Shown here piece by piece: positions 2,177-38,406 of a DNA stretch of 44,316 nucleotides; position 1 is the stretch's first letter; each line of letters begins with the position of its first letter. A program made the position numbers and the translations under genes. The notes below the pieces were generated by a model. That model saw only the letters and a program-made list of their open reading frames with translations, was not told the origin of the DNA and did no database searches. The stretch comes from Alphaproteobacteria bacterium. Its GTDB lineage: Bacteria; Pseudomonadota; Alphaproteobacteria; Rhodospirillales; UBA2165. The stretch covers positions 1 to 44,316 of the forward strand of contig CAUZTZ010000001.1 in assembly GCA_963582805.1 (NCBI GenBank), given 5' to 3'.

Positions 2177-3985
2177 ATGAACGAGACGATAGAACCGGCC
2201 TCCTCGCCCAGCGATGATCCGGCGGCCGCCGAGCCGGAATATCAGGTCCTGGCGCGCACCACCCGGCCGCAGACCTTTGCCGATCTGGTCGGCCAGGAGG
2301 CCATGGTGCGCACCCTCACCAATGCCTTCGATTCGGGGCGCCTCGCCCATGCCTTCATCCTCACCGGGGTGCGCGGCGTCGGCAAAACCACCACCGCCCG
2401 CATCATTGCCCGCGCCCTCAATTGCGTCGGGCCGGATGGCAATGGCGCACCGACCATCACACCCTGCGGGATATGCGAATTTTGCGTATCCATCGCCGAG
2501 GACCGGCAGGTCGACGTGCGGGAAATCGATGCCGCAAGCCACACCGGCGTCGAAAATATGAGAGAAATAATCGATGGCGTGCGTTACCGGCCGGTTTCGG
2601 CGCGCTACAAGATCTATATTATCGACGAAGTACACATGTTGTCGGGTCACTCCTTCAACGCATTGCTGAAAACCCTGGAAGAGCCGCCCGAACACGTCAA
2701 GTTTATTTTCGCCACCACCGAAATTCGCAAAGTGCCGGTGACCGTGCTGTCGCGCTGCCAGCGATTCGATCTTCGCCGGGTCGAGGTGGAAACCTTGATC
2801 CGCCATTTCACCGGCATCGCCGAAAAAGAGCAGGCCCGCTTAAGCGCCGAGGCCGTGGCCATGATTGCCCGCGCCGCCGATGGCAGCGTCCGCGACGGTC
2901 TCAGTCTTCTCGACCAAGTGTTGGCGATCGGCGCCGGCGCCGAGACGGAGCTTGGCGAGGACGACGTGCGCGCCATGCTTGGCCTCGCCGACCGGGAAGG
3001 CTCGTTCGATTTGTTGGAGCGCATCATGCAAGGCGACATCTCCGGCGCGCTGGACAAACTGGACGCCGATTATCAGAGCGGCGCCGATCCGTTGATCATC
3101 TTGCAGGACCTGTTGGGCGTGGTCCATTGGCAGACCCGCATCAAGGTCTCGCCGGCGGTTCTCGATGAGCCCGGCGCCGCCGAAATTGACAAAACGCGCG
3201 GCGCCCAATTGAACGACAAGCTAACCATGGCGGTGCTGACCCGCGCCTGGCAGATGCTGCTCAAGGGCGTCGCCGAGGTGCAGTCGGCGCCGGCGCCGAT
3301 CCAGGCCGCCGAAATGCTGCTCATCCGGCTTGCCTATATGGCCGATCTGCCGTCGCCGGCGGACGCGGTCAAGGCGCTGCAATCTTCGCCGGCCACGCCC
3401 GCCGCGCCGGGCCCAGCAACCGCCCCATCTCAAGCGCCACCGCCGCCATCCACCAGCGCCGGCGGCGCCCAATCGGCGATAGCCGTGCAAACGCAGCCCG
3501 CTGCGGAGCCGGAAGCCACGTCCGCACCCGCCCCGCAAAACTTCAACGACATTATTCAGCTTGCCGATGCAGCCAACGAGCGCATCTTGAAGACCGAACT
3601 GGAAGGCCAGGTGCATCTGGTGAGCTTCCAGCCGGGCGCTATCGAAATTCGTCTTGGGGAAGGCGCCGCGTCTGATCTATCCAGCCGCTTATCCAAATTT
3701 TTGGCGGAACAGACCGGCGCGCGCTGGATGGTGACCCTGGCCAAGGAAGGCGGCGCCGAGACCGTCGCCCAGCAATCGGACTCCGCCGCCCGCGACCGGC
3801 TTGGCGAAGTTGAACGCCACCCGGTGGTGCGCTCGATCATGGCAACATTTCCCGGCGCCGAAATCGAAAGCGTGCGCTCCATCGGTGGCGCCGGAGCGCA
3901 GCATTCGGGCGCTGACAATTCCGGCGGCGAAGACCAGGACGACGGAGACACGGACGAAGACACGGAAGGAAACATGGAGCCATGA
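2177..3985 (+). CDS. dnaX: DNA polymerase III subunit gamma/tau
   Basis: Motifs FADLVGQEAMVRTLTNAFDSGRLAHAFILTGVRGVGKTTTARIIA, Zn module C..C..C, IYIIDEVHMLS and SRCQRF. The start is set at MNETIEP because the upstream part of the 1667 ORF runs through the repeat and the SRP RNA. Confidence 0.93.
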   Translation: MNETIEPASSPSDDPAAAEPEYQVLARTTRPQTFADLVGQEAMVRTLTNAFDSGRLAHAFILTGVRGVGKTTTARIIARALNCVGPDGNGAPTITPCGICEFCVSIAEDRQVDVREIDAASHTGVENMREIIDGVRYRPVSARYKIYIIDEVHMLSGHSFNALLKTLEEPPEHVKFIFATTEIRKVPVTVLSRCQRFDLRRVEVETLIRHFTGIAEKEQARLSAEAVAMIARAADGSVRDGLSLLDQVLAIGAGAETELGEDDVRAMLGLADREGSFDLLERIMQGDISGALDKLDADYQSGADPLIILQDLLGVVHWQTRIKVSPAVLDEPGAAEIDKTRGAQLNDKLTMAVLTRAWQMLLKGVAEVQSAPAPIQAAEMLLIRLAYMADLPSPADAVKALQSSPATPAAPGPATAPSQAPPPPSTSAGGAQSAIAVQTQPAAEPEATSAPAPQNFNDIIQLADAANERILKTELEGQVHLVSFQPGAIEIRLGEGAASDLSSRLSKFLAEQTGARWMVTLAKEGGAETVAQQSDSAARDRLGEVERHPVVRSIMATFPGAEIESVRSIGGAGAQHSGADNSGGEDQDDGDTDEDTEGNMEP

Positions 3986-11185: not shown

Positions 11186-11196
11186 GGCATTGGCGG

Positions 11197-11259
11197 GCCC
11201 TGGCCGGCGTAGCTTTTAAGCGAAGCGAGCCCTGGCCGGCGTAGCTTTTAAGCGAAGCG
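11197..11259 (+). repeat. Tandem duplication (period 32 bp) GCCCTGGCCGGCGTAGCTTTTAAGCGAAGCG x2 at the core/AT-rich-island junction
   Basis: Two identical 31-bp copies at 11197-11227 and 11229-11259, separated by one base. They start 12 nt after the stop of the EgtB-family gene. Confidence 0.9.
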
Positions 11260-11395
11260 GGCGTGCGGTTTGGCTGTTGCCATTTTGGCACATCGATCAC
11301 ATTTAGAATTTATTTTTCGCTGAACAGTTGCGCTGGGAAAATTTTCGAACAAATAAAGAACTATGAAGTCCGTAAATTTGGCTGGAGAGACGTTC

Positions 11396-12325
11396 ATGCG
11401 TTCAAAATTACCTGTCTTGAAATCGGCATTGCTGGCACTTGGCGTATATCTGCTTGTCATGCCAGCACCGGCTTTGGCGGCGGAAAAACCGGCTGGGAAT
11501 AAAATCTATCCGCCCTACCCCGATGTCTGGGGCCGCGAAATGCCGATCCCGAAAGATGCTACGGGAGTTGTTTTCGCGGACAACGTTTTCGAAGGTCCGG
11601 ACGGACACATACTTGTCGGAGCCTGGTATCGGAACCGGCCAGGCGGCGAGGCCGGCAGTCGATATCTATACGATTTTTTCAAGGGCCGCGTTTTTAAGGA
11701 GTGGCCAGCCCAGAAGGGACCAGATTCCGATATCGACAAGATGTACCGATTTATCGAAGCCAACGGCTATCGGAGATTAGAAAACGTCGTTGGTTACTAT
11801 TCTACGGATAGAATTCCAATCCCGAACGGTGGCCATTTCGGGAGTGCCGACGGTGATACAATATTTCGAAGCAGCCTTCGACGGTTCAAGCCCGACGGGT
11901 CGGAACTTTACCGTTGGACGATCTTTTATCTTTTCGATCATGCATATTATTCCACCGGTCGAGCCGCCTCGGATTTTTTTGGTGGGCGCCGATTTGCCTA
12001 TTTCCGGGCGTCGGCTATCCATCCGAAGCTGTATCCATTGCGCGATGGCACATTTCTGCTGGCCGGCAGCAGGCGGCCCGTATTTATCCGATTCAAGGGT
12101 GATCTCAGCTCTCCCTACATCAGGCGCAGCGGCAATGTCATTCTCATCAATCCGGAAATAGCCAACAAGATGTTTTTGGAATCCTGGAATGAGGCGGAAA
12201 ATATTCTCTCCAGGCTCCGCGATCGAAATCCGAAACAGCCTTGGTTAGCACCAGAAGTCACCGACGAGATCATGTTCAGTAAACTCAAGAATCTTATCAA
12301 CCAGAAAGAAGGAACATCTAAATGA
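11396..12325 (+). CDS. Secreted protein of unknown family, paralog 1
   Basis: The start is chosen by alignment with paralog 2 and by GGAGAG 7 nt upstream. The signal peptide is MRSKLPVLKSALLALGVYLLVMPAPALA|AEKP. Conserved blocks shared with paralog 2: KIYPPYPDVWGR, LYDFF.GR, NGYR.L.NVVG, LRDGTFLLAG, DLSSPYI.RSG, NP.QPWLAPEVTDEIM.SKLKN. Confidence 0.75.
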   Translation: MRSKLPVLKSALLALGVYLLVMPAPALAAEKPAGNKIYPPYPDVWGREMPIPKDATGVVFADNVFEGPDGHILVGAWYRNRPGGEAGSRYLYDFFKGRVFKEWPAQKGPDSDIDKMYRFIEANGYRRLENVVGYYSTDRIPIPNGGHFGSADGDTIFRSSLRRFKPDGSELYRWTIFYLFDHAYYSTGRAASDFFGGRRFAYFRASAIHPKLYPLRDGTFLLAGSRRPVFIRFKGDLSSPYIRRSGNVILINPEIANKMFLESWNEAENILSRLRDRNPKQPWLAPEVTDEIMFSKLKNLINQKEGTSK

Positions 12326-12369
12326 ACGACCACGACATAGAAAATATCATTCGCGGCGCCCATCGTTAA
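12322..12369 (+). pseudogene. 15-codon remnant of the 5' end of the downstream 494-aa gene (MNDHDIENIIRGAHR*)
   Basis: atgaacgaccacgacatagaaaatatcattcg is near-identical to 13313.. atgaacgaccacgacatcgataaaatcatccg. It has the same ATGA overlap with the stop of the preceding paralog. Confidence 0.7.
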
Positions 12370-12386
12370 CGGGCCGGGAGGATGTC

Positions 12387-13316
12387 ATGAAATCAATATC
12401 ACTGATCTTGAATTCGGCATTGCTGGCACTCAGCACAATTCTATTCGCCCCGCTGAACCCGGCATCGGCCGTCGAAAAACCCACCGTTCAAAAAATCTAT
12501 CCCCCTTACCCCAATGTCTGGGGCCGGGCGATGTCCATTCCGAAAGGTGTTTCAGGAGAACTAAGTGCGGGCAATTTAAATTCGGGCGTCTACGAAGGAG
12601 CGGACGGAAGAATTCTCGTCGAATTCAGTTACCAGGACCGCCCTGGCGCCAAATCGCGAGGCAGACAAATTTTGTATGATTTTTTTGCCGGTCGCACGAT
12701 CAAGGATTGGCCAGCCTCCGAATTCAAGAAAAGAAGGCTGTTTTTGGAGACCAACGGATATCGCCAGTTGAAGAATGTCGTGGGCACCCAGTACGGGGAT
12801 AAAATCGGGCTTCCTGACGGTAGCCATTTCAGCGAAACGGACGGAGATGCTGTTTATGTAACTGGTCTTCGCCGGTTCGATGCCTCCGGGCGACAACTAT
12901 ACCACTGGGTGATCTTCTATATTTCCGAGCAGCCCTATTTTTCCCTCGGAAATAAATTCTCAGAATTTTTCAATGGTCGTAGATATGCCCATTTTCGGGC
13001 TCTGGATATTTCGCCGAAGCTATTTCCACTGCGAGACGGAACGTTTCTGTTAGCGGGCGGAACGCGGCCCGTTTTTATGCGCGTCCGGAATGATTTGAGT
13101 AGTCCGTATATTAAGCGAAGCGGCAAGATCGCCCTTATCGATCCGAAATTAGCCGACAAAATGTTTACCGAATCCTGGTTCCAGGCAGAACGCATACTCT
13201 CGCGGCTTCGCAAACAGAATCCAAATCAGCCCTGGCTGGCGCCAGAGGTCACTGACGAGATTATGTTGAGTAAACTCAAGAATATTATCAAACAGCAAAA
13301 TGGAGTGAATAAATGA
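12387..13316 (+). CDS. Secreted protein of unknown family, paralog 2
   Basis: GGGAGGA lies ahead of the ATG. The signal peptide is MKSISLILNSALLALSTILFAPLNPASA|VEKP. By eye it is roughly 55-60 percent identical to paralog 1 along the full length. Confidence 0.8.
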   Translation: MKSISLILNSALLALSTILFAPLNPASAVEKPTVQKIYPPYPNVWGRAMSIPKGVSGELSAGNLNSGVYEGADGRILVEFSYQDRPGAKSRGRQILYDFFAGRTIKDWPASEFKKRRLFLETNGYRQLKNVVGTQYGDKIGLPDGSHFSETDGDAVYVTGLRRFDASGRQLYHWVIFYISEQPYFSLGNKFSEFFNGRRYAHFRALDISPKLFPLRDGTFLLAGGTRPVFMRVRNDLSSPYIKRSGKIALIDPKLADKMFTESWFQAERILSRLRKQNPNQPWLAPEVTDEIMLSKLKNIIKQQNGVNK

Positions 13317-14797
13317 ACGACCACGACATCGATAAAATCATCCGAGAGATCGTCTTCGAAATGGAAGACGAGGGCGGCAAGAAGACTTACACCAGTTCCG
13401 TTTCCACCGGCAATAGCGGGATTTCATTTGGCCGCATGCAGCATGATGTGGGGAAGGAAGGAGGCCGCAATAAATTGATCAAAGTTTTGGACGCTGCGGG
13501 GATCGGGAAAGATAAAAAAGCTGAACTTGTCGGAGCTCTCGGCAAAGATGGTGGCCGTTCGATGACTGCCGGGCAAAGGGATATCATCAATGGGGCTCTG
13601 GCTAGCGATGGAGGAAAGAAAGTGGTGGACCAGTTGGACAAAGATGAGGTGAAGGTAGTCACCAGCCGTTTGAAAAAGGTAATTGAGGCCGCGAAACGCA
13701 ATCCCAACGGCGCCGGCAGTTTCGATCCAAACCATCCCGATTTCCGCAAAACCATCGGCGCCGCTAGCGCCTGGATCAACCGAACAGGTGATCCCAAAAA
13801 ATTAGCCCCTTACGTGGAAGGTAAGCCAGTCACCTTGAACAACGGCCAATCAACCGTAAAATTGCCCAGCGGCAAGGCTCCGTCTCTGGGCGGAATTACC
13901 AAAGAATACCTGCCGGCCACCAAACAGTTTCAACCCAAGGACAAGGGCGGCAACGGCGAGGAAATCGGCACATGGATCGGGCGTCTGAACAACGCCGCTG
14001 GTGGAAACCAAGGCGCTGCGCCCAAGCCCGCCCAGCCGGAAGCCGCCAAACCGCAACCCAAGGCACCGGACGCGCCCGCCGCACCGACAGCGCCAGCGGC
14101 GCCGGAACAGGACATCGATCCGGCTGTCCCACCAAGCAGCGCCGCCCCCAAGGAGCCGGAGGCACCCGAAGACGATCCCGGTCTCGGCGATGAAATCGAT
14201 GGCTTGGGCGGCGCGAGCCGCAACGGAGCCGCCGGCGATAAACCTGAAAGCAAAACCAACCAGAAGGCCGATGCGGAAATAATTAAGGAACAATTCGTAA
14301 ACGCGCTGGTGGCCAAGGGCAGCGAGGCGGATGAGATATTGCTCAAACGCCCCGCCGACTGGACCGAGGACGAGATGGCGGCGATCATGGGGAGCGAAGT
14401 CTATGGCCGCCCCGACGATCAGATCGGCGGATTCTCCAACGATCAGGTGACCCGCTGGCACGAGGCCGCCTATGGCGCTGACGGCAAGCCGCCGAAGGTT
14501 CAGCCAAAATCAGGCCCCAAGCTGGACAAACCCCTGGATGCCATCGCCGATGGCTTGAGCAAACGCTCCGGCGAGCGCGACCGGCGGCACGCGGTGATGG
14601 ATTTGCAGTCATCGATCAATGCGCTGCCGTCTGAGCGGCGCGGCGGTGCGGCGGACGGCGCCGATTTCGTGCCGACGCTCATCGTTAATGGCGAGCTTGG
14701 CCCCAAGACCCACTTTGCCGTCAAGAAAGCCATCGCCGGCTTCGGTGCACCGAAGGTGTTGGCGGCGGTGCAACGGCAGTTTGGGTGGGCGGCGTAG
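13313..14797 (+). CDS. Lysozyme-like N-terminal module / Pro-Ala-rich linker / peptidoglycan-binding-like C-terminal module protein with no signal peptide
   Basis: 494 aa, overlapping paralog 2 by ATGA. N-terminal FEMEDEGGKKTY...GNSGISFGRMQHDVGK (acidic catalytic-type Glu plus a G-x-x-Q motif). The linker is AAPKPAQPEAAKPQPKAPDAPAAPTAPAAPEQ... C-terminal VMDLQSSINAL...LIVNGELGPKTHFAVKKAI resembles a PG_binding domain. Confidence 0.7.
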   Translation: MNDHDIDKIIREIVFEMEDEGGKKTYTSSVSTGNSGISFGRMQHDVGKEGGRNKLIKVLDAAGIGKDKKAELVGALGKDGGRSMTAGQRDIINGALASDGGKKVVDQLDKDEVKVVTSRLKKVIEAAKRNPNGAGSFDPNHPDFRKTIGAASAWINRTGDPKKLAPYVEGKPVTLNNGQSTVKLPSGKAPSLGGITKEYLPATKQFQPKDKGGNGEEIGTWIGRLNNAAGGNQGAAPKPAQPEAAKPQPKAPDAPAAPTAPAAPEQDIDPAVPPSSAAPKEPEAPEDDPGLGDEIDGLGGASRNGAAGDKPESKTNQKADAEIIKEQFVNALVAKGSEADEILLKRPADWTEDEMAAIMGSEVYGRPDDQIGGFSNDQVTRWHEAAYGADGKPPKVQPKSGPKLDKPLDAIADGLSKRSGERDRRHAVMDLQSSINALPSERRGGAADGADFVPTLIVNGELGPKTHFAVKKAIAGFGAPKVLAAVQRQFGWAA

Positions 14798-14973
14798 TCA
14801 CATCGGCCCAGCCCGGCTGGGGGTACAGTATGGTCACGGCGCATTCGCGCGGGCTGGGGATGGCATGGTCGGCCAGCCCGCGCCCCGATGGTTTGCATGG
14901 ATCACGCCCCTGTTGCCACCGACTGAGCGTGGCTCACGCCTGCCTTGTAGCCGGCACCGGTGCACTGATCACG

Positions 14974-15016: not shown

Positions 15017-15309
15017 GTCGATTCAGGGAATCGTAACCTTTGCCCGTTAAGGTGCTCTCAGTGACGAACGGTTCCCCAACCGCAAGCACCCCCAGGTTCC
15101 CCCAGGGACCAAGCCCGAAAGGTTTGCGTCAATGACCCAGGCAGTTACGTTTAACTTACAAAAACAAAATAATTTTTCGGCCTGACCCAGGGATCACCGT
15201 CAGAAGAATCCCAAGTTATGTCGATAGTGCGTGAAAAAGCGGACCGGGGTGGAAACAAGTCCGTAAGCGAAATTACCAAAATCGCGACGTAACGCGTCTT
15301 GAGGTAGTT

Positions 15310-15346
15310 ACGCGGTCCGGTTCTCCGCCGGGCCGCGTATTTTTTT
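15310..15346 (+). terminator. Strong rho-independent terminator (plus-strand polarity; abuts the stop of the minus-strand TRAP permease)
   Basis: ACGCGGTCCGG-ttctccg-CCGGGCCGCGT forms an 11-bp stem with one G.U-type mismatch, followed by ATTTTTTT. A U-tract exists only in the plus orientation. Confidence 0.7.
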
Positions 15347-17303
15347 AACTGGCATTAGCCGCCAGCCTCCGTCCAACCACCAAATTGTTGTAGCCGATCA
15401 CCGCCATACCGGCGGCAAAAGCGGTCCAATGGATGAATGGGTCGGGCATCAGAACCAGAAATACCAGCGCAAAACGTATCATCATTTCCAGTATGCCCAA
15501 TTGGGTAGCGTCAAACCGGGCGAAAGCGCTGGTCATCAGCCAGATGGCTACCACCGTGCGCGCCAAAATGGAAATCAACGAGAAGGTCTCAAACCCGCCG
15601 GCCTGCGGAACCAATAGTAATTCCGGGTTATAGGCGAAGATGAAGGGCACCAGAATAATCGCAGCACCGATACGGATGGCCATAAAGCCGGTGCGCATGG
15701 GACCGGCCCCGGCGATCGAGGCGCCGGCGTAGGCGGCGATCGCCACCGGCGGCGTGATCGAAGAGGAGACGCCGAAATAAAACACAAACATATGGGCGAC
15801 CAGAAGATCCAAACCCAGGTTCAGCATGGTGGGCCCAAGGATCAATATTATGGTGAGATACGCCGGCAAGGTGGGCATGCCCATGCCGAAGATGATCGCC
15901 GTCACCGCCGCCACCACCAGCGCGACAAACAGGGAATGTTCCATCAAAACCTCGACCGAGTTGGCCAGGCGCAAGGGCAGTCCAGTTGAGGTCAAGACCG
16001 ACAGGACAATACCGACGACGCCGATGGCCATCAGCAATTCGGAGAACTGGATGCCGCCCTTGGCGAAGCCTTGCAAAATCTTGGCCGGGTTGCGGCGAAT
16101 TTCGGCGGAAAAGACGCTGGCCGGGACCAGATACAGAACCACGAACACGCCTGCGGCGGCGGCCGAAAGCCCGAACAACAAAGTCGCCACGATCACCGTA
16201 ATGGCGCCGGCCAGGATCACCAGATTGACGATATCGTGCTTGTCGAAGTTCAAATCATCGCCGACGCCGTCATCGGTTTTGATATCCAGGCGGCGCGCCT
16301 CGAAAGTCACGGTGAAAAACAGGCTGAGGTAATAAAGCAGCGCCGGGATCAGAGCCGCCGTAATGATCACCAGATATGACATTTGCAGCATGTCGGCCAT
16401 GATCAGGGCGGCGGCGCCCATGATCGGCGGCATAATTTGGCCGCCCGTGGAGGCGGTTGCCTCAATGGCACCGGCGAAGGTGGGCGTGAAGCCGCGCCGC
16501 TTGATCAGCGGGATGGTCATGACCCCGGTGCCGACCACGTTGGCCACCGGCACCCCGGACATGGTGCCGAACAAAGACGAGGCCAGCACCGCCGCATGGG
16601 CCGGGCCGCCGCGCGTGTTGCGGGTCACAATAAAGGCAAAGCGGATCAGCGAGCCGCCGACGCCGGAGGCTTCCAGCATGGCGCCGAAGATGATGAACGG
16701 AAAGACCGTGAACACGACGATCTCGAACACCTGGCCCAAGACGCCTTTGTTCAGATTGAACAAGACATCTTCGGAAAAATTGTCGATGAAGGACATCGGG
16801 ATGACTTTGAATATGGACGGCGTGTATTGGCCGAAGAAATAGTAAATAATCAGGACAACGCCGAACAATGCCAGCGGCGCCCCCCAGACAAGCCAGCAAA
16901 GGGCGATCAGTAGCCCGACGCCGAACATCGTGATCCAGGCGTGGGATTCTTCGAAAAAGAACAGAGAGTCTTGGATTTCGACGGTGACGAATGAGAACTG
17001 CCAGGATACATAATAGATGCCGGCCAGAATTGCGGCATCAACGAGTAGCCAGCGCCGCCAGGCAGTATCGTCTTTTTTAATCGCCAGGCGCGTGAACCCC
17101 CGGGCCAGAATCACAACCGTGACCGCCGCTGACAGCATTCCGCCGCGCAGAAATTCGGCTTTGAACGGACCCAGTTTTGGAATGATCCAGACGCTGGGCA
17201 TGGAATTGGCCATCGCCGTCACGGCCATGCCAAGACCGAGGATCATCGCCAACGAGGCGCCGATCCGAAGAAATTTGGCTGCCGATGCGGATGGTGTGTT
17301 CAT
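15345..17303 (-). CDS. TRAP transporter fused permease (TAXI-associated 4TM/12TM DctQM-type)
   Basis: About 650 aa and highly hydrophobic polytopic. It lies immediately downstream of a TAXI solute receptor gene. ATG at 17303 is preferred over the TTG at 17318. Confidence 0.85.
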   Translation of the reverse strand: MNTPSASAAKFLRIGASLAMILGLGMAVTAMANSMPSVWIIPKLGPFKAEFLRGGMLSAAVTVVILARGFTRLAIKKDDTAWRRWLLVDAAILAGIYYVSWQFSFVTVEIQDSLFFFEESHAWITMFGVGLLIALCWLVWGAPLALFGVVLIIYYFFGQYTPSIFKVIPMSFIDNFSEDVLFNLNKGVLGQVFEIVVFTVFPFIIFGAMLEASGVGGSLIRFAFIVTRNTRGGPAHAAVLASSLFGTMSGVPVANVVGTGVMTIPLIKRRGFTPTFAGAIEATASTGGQIMPPIMGAAALIMADMLQMSYLVIITAALIPALLYYLSLFFTVTFEARRLDIKTDDGVGDDLNFDKHDIVNLVILAGAITVIVATLLFGLSAAAAGVFVVLYLVPASVFSAEIRRNPAKILQGFAKGGIQFSELLMAIGVVGIVLSVLTSTGLPLRLANSVEVLMEHSLFVALVVAAVTAIIFGMGMPTLPAYLTIILILGPTMLNLGLDLLVAHMFVFYFGVSSSITPPVAIAAYAGASIAGAGPMRTGFMAIRIGAAIILVPFIFAYNPELLLVPQAGGFETFSLISILARTVVAIWLMTSAFARFDATQLGILEMMIRFALVFLVLMPDPFIHWTAFAAGMAVIGYNNLVVGRRLAANAS

Positions 17304-20826: not shown

Positions 20827-21765
20827 TCACGGCCGGGCCGCCAGCGGATGGCTGGTTTCAACCAGCCGCTTGAGCCGGTCTTCGAGCACGTGGGTATAGA
20901 TCTGCGTCGTCGAAATATCGGCGTGACCGAGCATTTGCTGCAATGAGCGCAAATCGGCGCCGTGGGCCAGCAGATGACTGGCGAACGAATGGCGCAACAC
21001 ATGCGGCGAGACCCGCGCCGGATCGATGCCGGCAATCACCGCCAGCGTCTTTAATTTGCGCGCCACGGTCGCCCGCGTGAGGTGCCCGCCAGCCGCCGTG
21101 GACGGAAACAAAAAGGCCGAGCTGCGCCCAGCCCCGATGAAATCGGCGCGCACCTCCAAGTAGCTGGCGATGGCGTCTCTGGCCGGATCGCCCAAGGGCA
21201 CCATGCGCTCCTTGCCGCCCTTGCCGCGCACCATCAGCATCTGGCCATCGCGCGAAATCGCCGACAATGGCAATCCGGCCAATTCCGAAACCCGTAAGCC
21301 AGTGGCATAGAGCGCTTCGATGAGCGCGGTGGCGCGCAGGCCCTCGGCCCCTTCGAGACCACCGGCGGCGGCGATCAGCGCCTCCACCTCCGCCTCGCCA
21401 AGATATTTGGGCAGCGGCTGGCCCAGCTTGGGCGCATCGATGGCTTGCGCCGGATCATCGCCCCTTGTGCCCTCGGCAAACAAAAACGCAAAAAACTGGC
21501 GCAGCACGCTAAGCCGTCTGGCTTGGGTCGCAGCTGAGCGCCCGCGGCCCCGAAGCCCGGCCAGATAGTCGCGGATGTTTTTGGCATCGGCGGCTTCGAT
21601 GGCGCGCCCCCGGCGGCCCGCGAAGGCGGCAAAATCGGCCAGATCGCGGCGGTAGGCGTCCAGGGTATGCACCGACGCGCCGCGTTCGGCGGCCATCATC
21701 TCCAAAAATATCTCCAGATGGCGGGAGATAGGCGGTGCGGGCCGGGCGCGCCGGGCGGAAGTCAC
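20827..21765 (-). CDS. xerD: Site-specific tyrosine recombinase XerD
   Basis: N-terminal SAM-like FLEMMAAERGASVHTLDAYRRDL. C-terminal catalytic ATGLRVSEL ... HVLRHSFASHLL ... LGHADISTTQIYTHV. Probable GTG start. Confidence 0.88.
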   Translation of the reverse strand: MTSARRARPAPPISRHLEIFLEMMAAERGASVHTLDAYRRDLADFAAFAGRRGRAIEAADAKNIRDYLAGLRGRGRSAATQARRLSVLRQFFAFLFAEGTRGDDPAQAIDAPKLGQPLPKYLGEAEVEALIAAAGGLEGAEGLRATALIEALYATGLRVSELAGLPLSAISRDGQMLMVRGKGGKERMVPLGDPARDAIASYLEVRADFIGAGRSSAFLFPSTAAGGHLTRATVARKLKTLAVIAGIDPARVSPHVLRHSFASHLLAHGADLRSLQQMLGHADISTTQIYTHVLEDRLKRLVETSHPLAARP

Positions 21766-38272: not shown

Positions 38273-38372
38273 GCGTGTCGCATGTTGCATTTCGATGTTC
38301 AAAATGTCCCTGGATGTCCACAAATGTCCATAAATGACAAGGATGTCCATGCCGTTTGCGCGTGTCGCATGT
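38273..38372. promoter_or_regulatory. Regulatory array: direct repeats GCGTGTCGCATGT (38273 and 38360, 87 bp apart) bracketing about 10-bp-phased ATGT(C/T)(C/G) boxes
   Basis: ATGTCC starts at 38304, 38314, 38324 and 38343, with degenerate boxes at 38282, 38295, 38334 and 38369. The array ends 35 nt before the aldolase-fold gene ATG (38407). Confidence 0.5.
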
Positions 38373-38406
38373 CGCACACCTACCTTCTAATGCTAGAGTG
38401 AACCCC

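Follow-up and report, generated by a model that had tools for sequence, protein, structure and literature searches.

The window analysed here, i.e., the whole stretch of 44,316 nucleotides at positions 1 to 44,316 of contig CAUZTZ010000001.1 (assembly GCA_963582805.1, an Alphaproteobacteria bacterium of the Rhodospirillales lineage UBA2165), raises the question of what is encoded by a ~3.6 kb cassette of three co-directional genes located among housekeeping genes, of which two (A1 and A2) encode secreted paralogs and the third (B) a protein of 494 residues without export signal. The initial annotation had read this cassette by the logic of muramidase effectors and their periplasmic immunity proteins. 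Our results support this reading, and it is probable that the cassette is an accessory toxin-immunity module, in which B would act as an exported antibacterial cell-wall glycosidase and A1 and A2 as periplasmic immunity proteins.

The anatomy of the cassette was identified directly from the DNA. A1 (11396-12325, forward strand) and A2 (12387-13316, forward strand) each encode 309 residues and are the proposed periplasmic immunity proteins 1 and 2, and B (13313-14797, forward strand) is coupled to A2 through a shared ATGA, in which the A2 stop and the B start overlap by 4 nt, as the initial annotation had noticed. An alternative ATG at 11363 would extend A1 to 320 residues, but the start at 11396 is better supported because of a Shine-Dalgarno sequence (GGAGAG, 11384-11389) and its fit to the paralog alignment. 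A1 and A2 display 56% identity over their full length (E=2e-125), which confirms their paralogy, and the conserved blocks quoted earlier are visible in their alignment. By inspection, both start with a signal peptide of n-h-c layout that ends in an AxA site and lacks a lipobox Cys (cleavage between PAPALA and AEKP in A1 and between NPASA and VEKP in A2), consistent with the Sec signals assigned to them, and the N-terminus of B (MNDHDIDKIIREIVFEMEDEGG) is hydrophilic and devoid of a signal peptide, again as reported. The hidden Markov model (HMM) built for the A family recovers both paralogs (A1, E=7.5e-76; A2, E=1.4e-67), and none of the three proteins matches any Pfam, NCBIfam, PHROG or PADLOC model. 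Likewise, the lysozyme-inhibitor families (LprI/DUF1311, PliC/MliC, PliG, PliI and Ivy) gave no Pfam/NCBIfam match in A1, A2 and nine divergent A members, and a PDB profile search with the A family returned nothing significant. With all these resources silent, the paralogs match no known enzyme or transport family, in line with the initial annotation, which could place them in no family.

The duplication that created the two paralogs left a scar. A relic of 15 codons of the B 5′ end (MNDHDIENIIRGAHR*, 12322-12369, forward strand) overlaps the A1 stop as ATGA, and the tandem repeat spacing of 991 gives the size in bp of the duplication unit behind A1 and A2; since a B 5′ end follows A1, this 991-bp duplication must have taken in the A/B junction. 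The relic is kept in a second allele (locus L003), and the spacer between A1 and A2 is more conserved than the A genes themselves, which may reflect either gene conversion or a function in translational coupling.

The proposed toxic catalytic domain corresponds to residues 1-232 of B (13313-14008, forward strand), assigned to a glycosidase module of the lysozyme superfamily with a likeness to glycoside hydrolase family 46 (GH46). An exhaustive search of 1.84 billion cluster representatives with an N-domain-only profile yielded 168 proteins at E<=1e-3 (42 of them at E<=1e-10), and in these proteins the B-type domain is nearly always N-terminal. The signature E18...S35-G-x-S38-x-G40-x-x-Q43-x-D45...N156 is near-invariant in this family. 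Indeed, SGxSxGxxQxD was present in 119/149 members, beginning at residues 26-50 in 102 of them, and the eight residues E18 (13364-13366), S35, G36, S38, G40, Q43, D45 (13445-13447) and N156 are each conserved in >=90% of 135 sequences sharing 19-40% identity with the window protein and are invariant in 10 very divergent members.

An AlphaFold2 model of the N-domain on the 135-sequence alignment reached a predicted local distance difference test (pLDDT) score of 93.5 and a predicted template modelling (pTM) score of 0.89 (note that the full-length model of B, based on 3 sequences, was too poor to be used, with a pLDDT of 45). In the model, a helix spanning residues 3-18 ends at Glu18 and is followed by a three-stranded sheet bearing the motif, with D45 in a beta-hairpin, and then by a helical lobe. 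Foldseek comparison with the PDB placed GH46 chitosanases in all top 10 positions, aligned end-to-end (230-247 aligned columns of 239), with 6lwu_A as the best match (probability 0.99, template modelling (TM) score 0.50), ranks 2-8 at probabilities of 0.66-0.94, and the whole top 10 spanning probabilities of 0.23-0.99, TM-scores of 0.35-0.50 and E-values of 0.05-0.6. Several of these entries are E19A catalytic mutants of ~240-aa enzymes, and T4-type lysozymes rank next. In BFVD, nine matches exceeded a probability of 0.6, including two chitosanase/GH46 entries (TM ~0.5), another glycoside hydrolase, a putative endolysin and an entry named ‘effector/immunity/peptidoglycan’, the rest being unnamed or named peptidase or structural protein. 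Members of the lysozyme superfamily (GH46, GH24 and related families) share a beta-sheet floor, two core helices and a general-acid Glu after the first helix, and the inverting ones carry a second acid on the sheet (PMC7511926); the modelled N-domain fits this description.

The sequence comparisons were less explicit. The GH46 Pfam model matched neither the window B (E<=1) nor any of 135 B-family members, and no chitosanase was found in the PDB profile search with the B family. Sequence and profile searches of the PDB with B, its N-domain and its family gave Slt35 (E=0.24) and T4 lysozyme (E=0.41) as best matches, which are suggestive only, and hhalign of the N-domain profile against the GH108 domain of locus L007 and the GH24 protein of locus L020 gave probabilities <1% (a weak test, with single-sequence templates). 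The fold call is thus based on the consistency of the structural matches and on their probability scores, and because the E-values are modest and no sequence-profile link exists, the N-domain is best regarded as a new family in the lysozyme superfamily and not as a member of GH46. Compared with the GH46 chitosanases of Gynuella (GsCsn46A, 6lwu), Streptomyces N174 (CsnA, 1chk) and Bacillus subtilis (Csn, 7c6c/7c6d), it has the same ~240-aa size and two-lobed fold, and its E18 at the C-terminal end of the first helix and its conserved D45 in the beta region are candidate counterparts of the chitosanase acids (E19 of the E19A entries and a second carboxylate); in contrast, the B family shows no sequence-profile similarity to them and has its own SGxSFGxxQxD signature, B has no signal peptide, and the module occurs with a periplasmic partner and fused to peptidoglycan-binding, peptidase or RTX modules, its putative substrate being peptidoglycan and not chitosan. 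The lysozyme or lytic transglycosylase-like module announced in the initial annotation is therefore retained for its superfamily fold and for the conserved Glu ending helix 1, but it lies nearer to the GH46/T4 type than to soluble lytic transglycosylases (SLT). The SLT-type reading of E...GRMQ...WINRTG was dropped for that of a GH46/T4-like hydrolase in view of the fold matches and of the second invariant carboxylate.

The substrate is suggested by the domains with which the B-type module is associated elsewhere, nearly all of which are peptidoglycan-directed or RTX (repeats-in-toxin). The N-domain is fused to Peptidase_M15_4 (4 members), LysM (3), Tlde1 (3), CHAP (2), PG_binding_3 (2), DUF2272 (2), PG_binding_1 (1), M23 with PG_binding_1 (1) and Phage_Mu_F (one). 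In B itself, the N-domain is followed by a linker rich in Pro, Ala and Glu (residues 233-310, 14009-14242, forward strand; GC 0.72), a low-complexity segment predicted to be disordered (pLDDT 24-35 in the full-length model), in line with the Pro/Ala linker described previously, and by a constant C-domain (residues 311-494, 14243-14797, forward strand) with a PG_binding_1/3-like motif, LIVNGELGPKTHFAVKKAI, at residues ~455-475. This C-domain recurs in ~10 B-family members, and its homologs match PG_binding_3/1 at the position of LIVNGELGPKTHFAVKKAI (31.1 bits in P0129 for a cutoff of 24.6, 24.3 bits in L012, and several just under the threshold). The C-terminal peptidoglycan-binding-like motif noticed earlier is thus found again in the homologs, but not as a Pfam match in the window protein. 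Taken together, the fused domains and the PG_binding matches of the C-domain homologs make peptidoglycan the most likely substrate of B and suggest a wall-binding role for its C-terminus, which we propose, from sequence comparison, to be a cell-wall anchoring and/or delivery module. It should be noticed that repeated C-terminal motifs occur in the 482-aa protein of L016 (...LRALYPTMYP...LRMLYPTMYP) and in P0014 (...RVAAIFxxLYP, twice), and that they may relate to export.

The proximity to chitosanases also allows a reading in terms of polysaccharide utilisation or matrix turnover, where B would be a secreted enzyme of chitosanase type whose substrate is chitosan, partially deacetylated chitin or some exopolysaccharide, and A a periplasmic oligosaccharide-binding or accessory protein. 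True GH46 chitosanases are indeed the nearest structural matches, the LysM modules of the relatives can bind chitin as well as peptidoglycan, and the source is a marine metagenome. However, this reading is very unlikely, since no member matches the Pfam GH46 model, the partners of the module (M15_4, CHAP, Tlde1, M23 and PG_binding_1/3) are neither carbohydrate-binding modules nor sugar transporters, A is linked to LprI and to GH108/GH24 lysozymes, no sugar catabolic or transport gene accompanies the cassette in its four contexts, and B lacks a signal peptide.

The strongest argument for a toxin-immunity module comes from the distribution of the A family and its association with B-like genes. 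A genome scan with the A alignment retrieved 18 loci with distant relatives (22-31% identity), which share a mature N-terminal YPPYPDVWG motif as well as DG[DE], FFxG, PLxDxTFL and RFD...S, and which belong to Nitrospira, Thermodesulfobacteriota, deltaproteobacterial metagenome-assembled genomes (MAGs), Rhodospirillales, Coxiellaceae, Holosporaceae, Rickettsiales and Jidaibacter. Sequence was available for 15 of these loci, from several phyla, and in 8 of them (L008, L010, L012, L013, L014, L016, L020 and L022) a B-like gene lies directly downstream of A, often with a 4-nt overlap at the junction. The B-anchored search gave the same association from the other side, with A genes adjacent in 3/5 loci (L026, L029 and, on both sides of B, L028, i.e., Alkalidesulfovibrio alkalitolerans dsat_2095/2096). 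The A-B linkage therefore spans Alphaproteobacteria, Gammaproteobacteria and Thermodesulfobacteriota. A genes form tandem arrays (4 copies in Insolitispirillum peregrinum L016, 3-4 in the Rickettsiales endosymbiont L009, 2 in L018, L019 and L028), and are found as orphans in five loci (L006, L011, L015, L017 and L021). That A occurs in arrays and as orphans, and that it persists next to a disrupted B in L031 (see below), is how an immunity gene, and not a cofactor, would be expected to behave. In addition, the A gene of L007 is followed by LprI (a lysozyme inhibitor, 73 bits) and by a 2502-aa GH108-PG_binding_3-RTX protein, and GH24 lysozymes lie near A genes in L018 and L020. The coupling of A and B across phyla, the arrays and orphans, and this LprI and GH108-RTX neighbourhood are the observations that sustain the effector-immunity interpretation. 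Note that public annotations of A and B proteins read only ‘hypothetical protein’ or ‘LysM domain protein’.

Two of these loci hold further gene sets. In L018 (10836-13479), three secreted paralogs of 170-197 aa surround a GH24 ‘Phage_lysozyme’ protein, and in L020 (1962-4339) a 274-aa secreted protein precedes a 518-aa GH24 protein. These sets look like islands of cell-wall effectors, i.e., further toxin-immunity-like sets.

Our findings also show that the cassette is rare and variable in its location. Among 5.8 billion clustered proteins, close relatives number 3 for B and 4 for A2, all from marine metagenomes; relatives of B are absent from 185,579 species-representative genomes and from IMG/VR, and plasmid or phage collections (50,697 phage records) contain relatives of neither A nor B. 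Four contexts were observed for the close cassette, with unrelated flanks and a shared DNA segment extending from ~11225 to 14909: (i) an EgtB-like gene, A1-A2-B and a TRAP (tripartite ATP-independent periplasmic) transporter in the window and L002; (ii) a CoA-transferase, A1'-A2'-B' and a fumarase in L001/L003/L024/L025; (iii) a decayed form in L004/L005, with B split by a frameshift after residue 71 and A deleted to a C-terminal remnant of 30 residues; and (iv) in L031, a single intact A gene upstream of a B that a 26-nt tandem duplication disrupts. The latter duplication (1888-1939) covers the E-M-E-D-E-G-G-K-K codons of the Glu motif and shifts the frame, and the removal of one 26-nt copy gives an intact B nearly identical to that of the window. 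Since the broken B of L031 is seen on one metagenomic contig, an assembly artefact is possible in this case.

The composition of the cassette and the divergence of its alleles follow the same boundary. GC content is 0.48-0.55 across 11.1-13.8 kb compared with 0.60-0.66 in the flanks, and GC at third codon positions (GC3) amounts to 0.55 in A1, 0.54 in A2 and 0.61 in the B N-domain compared with 0.76-0.80 in the neighbouring genes. However, the low-GC block ends inside B, as its linker and C-terminal domain are host-like (GC 0.63-0.72; GC3 of 0.71 and 0.77, respectively); the AT-richer block recognised in the initial annotation is thus real in both windowed GC and GC3, but does not include the 3′ half of B. 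When the window was compared with the L001/L024 allele, A1/A2 displayed 55-57% amino acid identity and residues 1-250 of B were 46-74% identical (proportion of synonymous differences (pS) 0.47-0.64), as against 92-100% identity (pS 0.08-0.25) for residues 251-494, with ~112 nt downstream also kept. In both alleles, the variable part is the low-GC3 part. This pattern of divergence implies that the immunity-like genes and the B N-domain vary together beside a constant 3′ segment. Moreover, the low GC3 of A and of the B N-domain recurs in five hosts, and A genes are GC3-poor relative to their host in Insolitispirillum, L012 and L028. With four contexts, low GC3, decay in two of them and the absence of B from 185,579 genomes, the locus is neither universally syntenic nor compositionally normal.

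These data bear on another alternative, in which the cell would use B as its own peptidoglycan glycosidase during growth, division or recycling, and A1/A2 would regulate it or serve as its scaffold in the periplasm. A lysozyme-like fold with PG_binding-like or LysM modules is found in many autolysins, the operon is surrounded by core genes in the window, and a dN/dS of ~0.3 indicates functional constraint. Such housekeeping cell-wall remodelling is nevertheless unlikely, given the very sparse distribution (3-4 close relatives among 5.8e9 proteins, with B absent from the species genomes), the four unrelated contexts with decay in two, the atypical GC3, the lack of a Sec or Tat signal in B, the relatives that are RTX giants of type I secretion or carry domains of toxin type (Tlde1, CHAP or M15), and the occurrence of A as orphans and arrays.

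A low-GC and mobile module could also be a remnant of a prophage or gene transfer agent, with B as a signal-less endolysin or virion lysin and A as phage accessory genes; in BFVD, the same fold is matched in phage endolysins and large virion proteins, and one B-family member is fused to Phage_Mu_F. We consider such a lysis or virion-lysin origin extremely improbable, because there is no PHROG match, no relative in IMG/VR or in the 50,697 phage records, and no holin, spanin, capsid, tail or integrase gene adjoining the cassette in the four close contexts and the inspected distant loci. The nearest recombinase, a tyrosine recombinase of XerC/D type (20827-21765, reverse strand; 312 aa with Phage_integrase and SAM_1 domains), is located 6 kb downstream of the cassette, beyond core genes including the TRAP and UbiD genes, and is most likely a housekeeping recombinase for dimer resolution, outside the cassette. 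Around the cassette, neither a tRNA, nor flanking direct or inverted repeats of note, nor an Rfam family, nor an adjacent integrase was detected. As had been noted, no secretion-system, holin or phage structural gene occurs among the window ORFs (open reading frames) scanned.

A possible export route for toxins of this kind is suggested by the relatives of B. RTX repeats are present in L008, L014, L020, P0023, P0028, P0115 and three further B-family members, and the members of 900-3300 residues (L008, L010, L014, L020, P0023, P0028 and P0115) are RTX proteins. Genes for a type I secretion system (T1SS), i.e., an ABC transporter and an HlyD/AprE-type protein, adjoin the B-like gene in L020 and L027. 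Type I secretion is documented only for these RTX-bearing relatives, and none is visible for the window B. As for type VI secretion (T6SS), no VgrG, PAAR, Hcp, MIX, Rhs or T6SS adaptor domain was found in B or in the window ORFs scanned, and the Tlde1 fusions, which concern three distant B-family members, have no bearing on a T6SS linkage of the window locus. The comparison with T6SS effector-immunity pairs made in the initial annotation thus keeps its value as an analogy of logic only, whereas the secretion link in the relatives is of type I. In L027 (an Oleiphilus MAG), the B-like RTX-type protein comes after a secreted protein of 277 aa (2810-3643), which the HMM does not assign to the A family and which may represent another immunity family directed at this toxin domain.

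Several observations weigh against the toxin-immunity interpretation and must be considered together. The Foldseek E-values are modest (0.05-0.6, none <=1e-3) with TM-scores of 0.4-0.5, and the B N-domain has no sequence-profile link to GH46, GH24, GH108 or SLT. A GH46-like fold and LysM modules would also fit chitin- or chitosan-type substrates. The C-domain of the window B has no Pfam match of its own, its PG_binding assignment being transitive only. The window B also lacks RTX (HemolysinCabind) repeats and a recognisable secretion signal, and the window contains no ABC/HlyD pair or secretion genes. Finally, the broken B cases come from single metagenomic assemblies, L004 and L005 being independent samples, and the dN/dS of 0.26-0.34 indicates purifying and not demonstrably diversifying selection.

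Under the toxin-immunity interpretation, which we favour, the following mechanism can be proposed. B would leave the producer cell and reach the periplasm of a target cell, where its C-terminus, which may in addition contain an export or uptake determinant, would bind peptidoglycan and keep the enzyme attached to the sacculus. Residues 1-232 would then hydrolyse the glycan strands of peptidoglycan, with Glu18 as the general acid and the S-G-x-S-x-G-x-x-Q-x-D45 beta-hairpin supplying the water-activating base, the disordered Pro/Ala linker joining the two folded domains. The Sec-exported A1 and A2 would bind and block the cleft of B-type enzymes coming from sibling or competitor cells, and two diverged A copies would widen the range of toxin alleles that are neutralised. 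The constant 3′ half of B may serve as a recombination anchor for swapping the immunity and toxin-head module. In this scheme, we infer the action on peptidoglycan, the toxicity of B, its inhibition by A and the export route from the architecture and the neighbourhoods of both families.

The concept of a cell-wall-degrading effector with a periplasmic immunity protein is already known. The T6SS pairs Tse3/Tsi3 and Tge/Tgi and the pesticin/Pim pair of Yersinia pestis are muramidase toxins acting in the periplasm with periplasmic immunity, and in such systems immunity genes can be duplicated or orphaned. The cassette resembles them in associating a signal-less glycosidase of the lysozyme superfamily with an adjacent Sec-exported partner, and in pesticin, too, a killing domain of lysozyme type is joined to targeting domains without catalytic function. 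In contrast, no T6SS marker or gene was found here, the relatives are RTX/T1SS proteins, both families are unrelated in sequence to these systems (no Pfam matches), and the catalytic domain is C-terminal in pesticin and N-terminal in B. The giant GH108-PG_binding_3-RTX protein of L007 with its LprI offers another parallel, as it takes the same position relative to the A gene and is built, as the B-like giants of L008, L010, L014 and L020, from a lysozyme-type N-domain, peptidoglycan-binding and RTX parts; it differs in being a bona fide GH108 protein (87.5 bits) in which hhalign detected no similarity to the B-type domain.

Among systems described in the literature, the X-Tfe/X-Tfi pairs of the Xanthomonadales-type type IV secretion system combine a variable N-terminal wall-targeting domain, a conserved C-terminal domain and an upstream immunity gene, and can be exchanged by horizontal gene transfer (PMC6759196). 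B shares this arrangement, with its variable N-domain, its conserved C-domain and A genes upstream in a small operon; however, A1 and A2 are not lipoproteins, the window has no VirB/VirD4 gene, and the carriers of A and B are not Xanthomonadales. The B C-domain has no Pfam match, in a Pfam copy that we presume to include the XVIPCD model, and its homologs match PG_binding_3/1. In polymorphic toxins (contact-dependent inhibition and Rhs systems), the toxin domain and the adjacent immunity gene diversify beside a constant region that may be a recombination anchor, and orphan or arrayed immunity genes occur (PMC3482391). Our locus resembles such a polymorphic toxin locus with reversed polarity, since here the toxin is N-terminal, the immunity genes are upstream and the constant part is C-terminal. 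A glycosidase of this fold is not listed among the toxin domains of the census in PMC3482391, and neither family was described in the literature that we surveyed on GH46-like or chitosanase-like toxins and on T1SS peptidoglycan hydrolases associated with immunity proteins. Novelty lies in both protein families, in a GH46-like fold serving such a function, in RTX-lysozyme giants that come with their own immunity genes, and in a polymorphic arrangement whose polarity is reversed; the literature searched described none of these elements.

The DNA around the three genes contains further features that may be related to the boundaries and expression of the cassette. Two tandem copies (97% identical) of a 32-nt unit, GCGrGCCCTGGCCGGCGTAGCTTTTAAGCGAA, lie at 11193-11256, directly after the stop codon of the EgtB-like gene, and one related copy is located at the left homology edge in L031. 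This repeat marks the left boundary of the DNA common to the contexts, and may be the scar of an insertion or have a regulatory function. Upstream of A1, the motif GAACAAATAAAGAAC (11347-11361, forward strand) is the sole upstream stretch conserved between the window and both the L031 and the L003 allele. The region shows no sigma-70 consensus, and a regulatory role for the motif, as a putative promoter or operator of the A1-A2-B operon, is suggested by its conservation. Downstream of B, a conserved 3′ tail of 112 nt (14798-14909, forward strand) is ~95% identical to positions 3321-3429 of L001, the homology ending beyond; it is not unusually structured as RNA (z=0.5) and has no Rfam match. 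A terminator-like hairpin with a 13-bp stem and a T-run (15309-15349), located between B and the convergent TRAP DctM gene and recognised by pattern match only, is the probable 3′ end of the operon transcript. The other genes of the window are housekeeping genes, i.e., dnaX-ybaB-recR, a glycosyltransferase of family GT4, the EgtB-like gene, the TRAP transporter, UbiD, AroKB, CorC, CobT and isocitrate dehydrogenase (ICDH). Farther away, an intergenic element of 77 nt (38301-38377) is 90% identical to L004 2251-2326 and L005 1982-2057, where it lies ~170 nt downstream of the B of the decayed cassette; this element is probably a small dispersed repeat of this lineage.

Altogether, A and B might represent an unrecognised and phylogenetically wide class of antibacterial weapons, which we put forward tentatively, made of GH46-like peptidoglycan glycosidases and of a periplasmic immunity family with the YPPYPDVW motif in loci of reversed polarity. 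In such a class, B-type enzymes would exist as small peptidoglycan-binding proteins or as N-terminal warheads of RTX/T1SS proteins of several thousand residues, and the exchangeable part would be the immunity array with the N-terminal toxin, the C-terminal anchor or delivery domain staying constant. If this is true, the lysozyme superfamily would gain a new glycosidase family with a sharply defined and easily mutated active-site signature, and the A proteins would constitute a new immunity or inhibitor family with which orphan immunity genes can be annotated in MAGs, including those of protist endosymbionts (Rickettsiales, Holosporaceae and Coxiellaceae). It would also mean that RTX giants of type I secretion can carry lysozyme-type warheads with cognate immunity, and would illustrate how toxin and immunity can diversify together with a constant C-terminal region as their anchor. 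Should this constant C-domain also be an export or uptake signal, it would represent a delivery route undescribed for non-RTX proteins.

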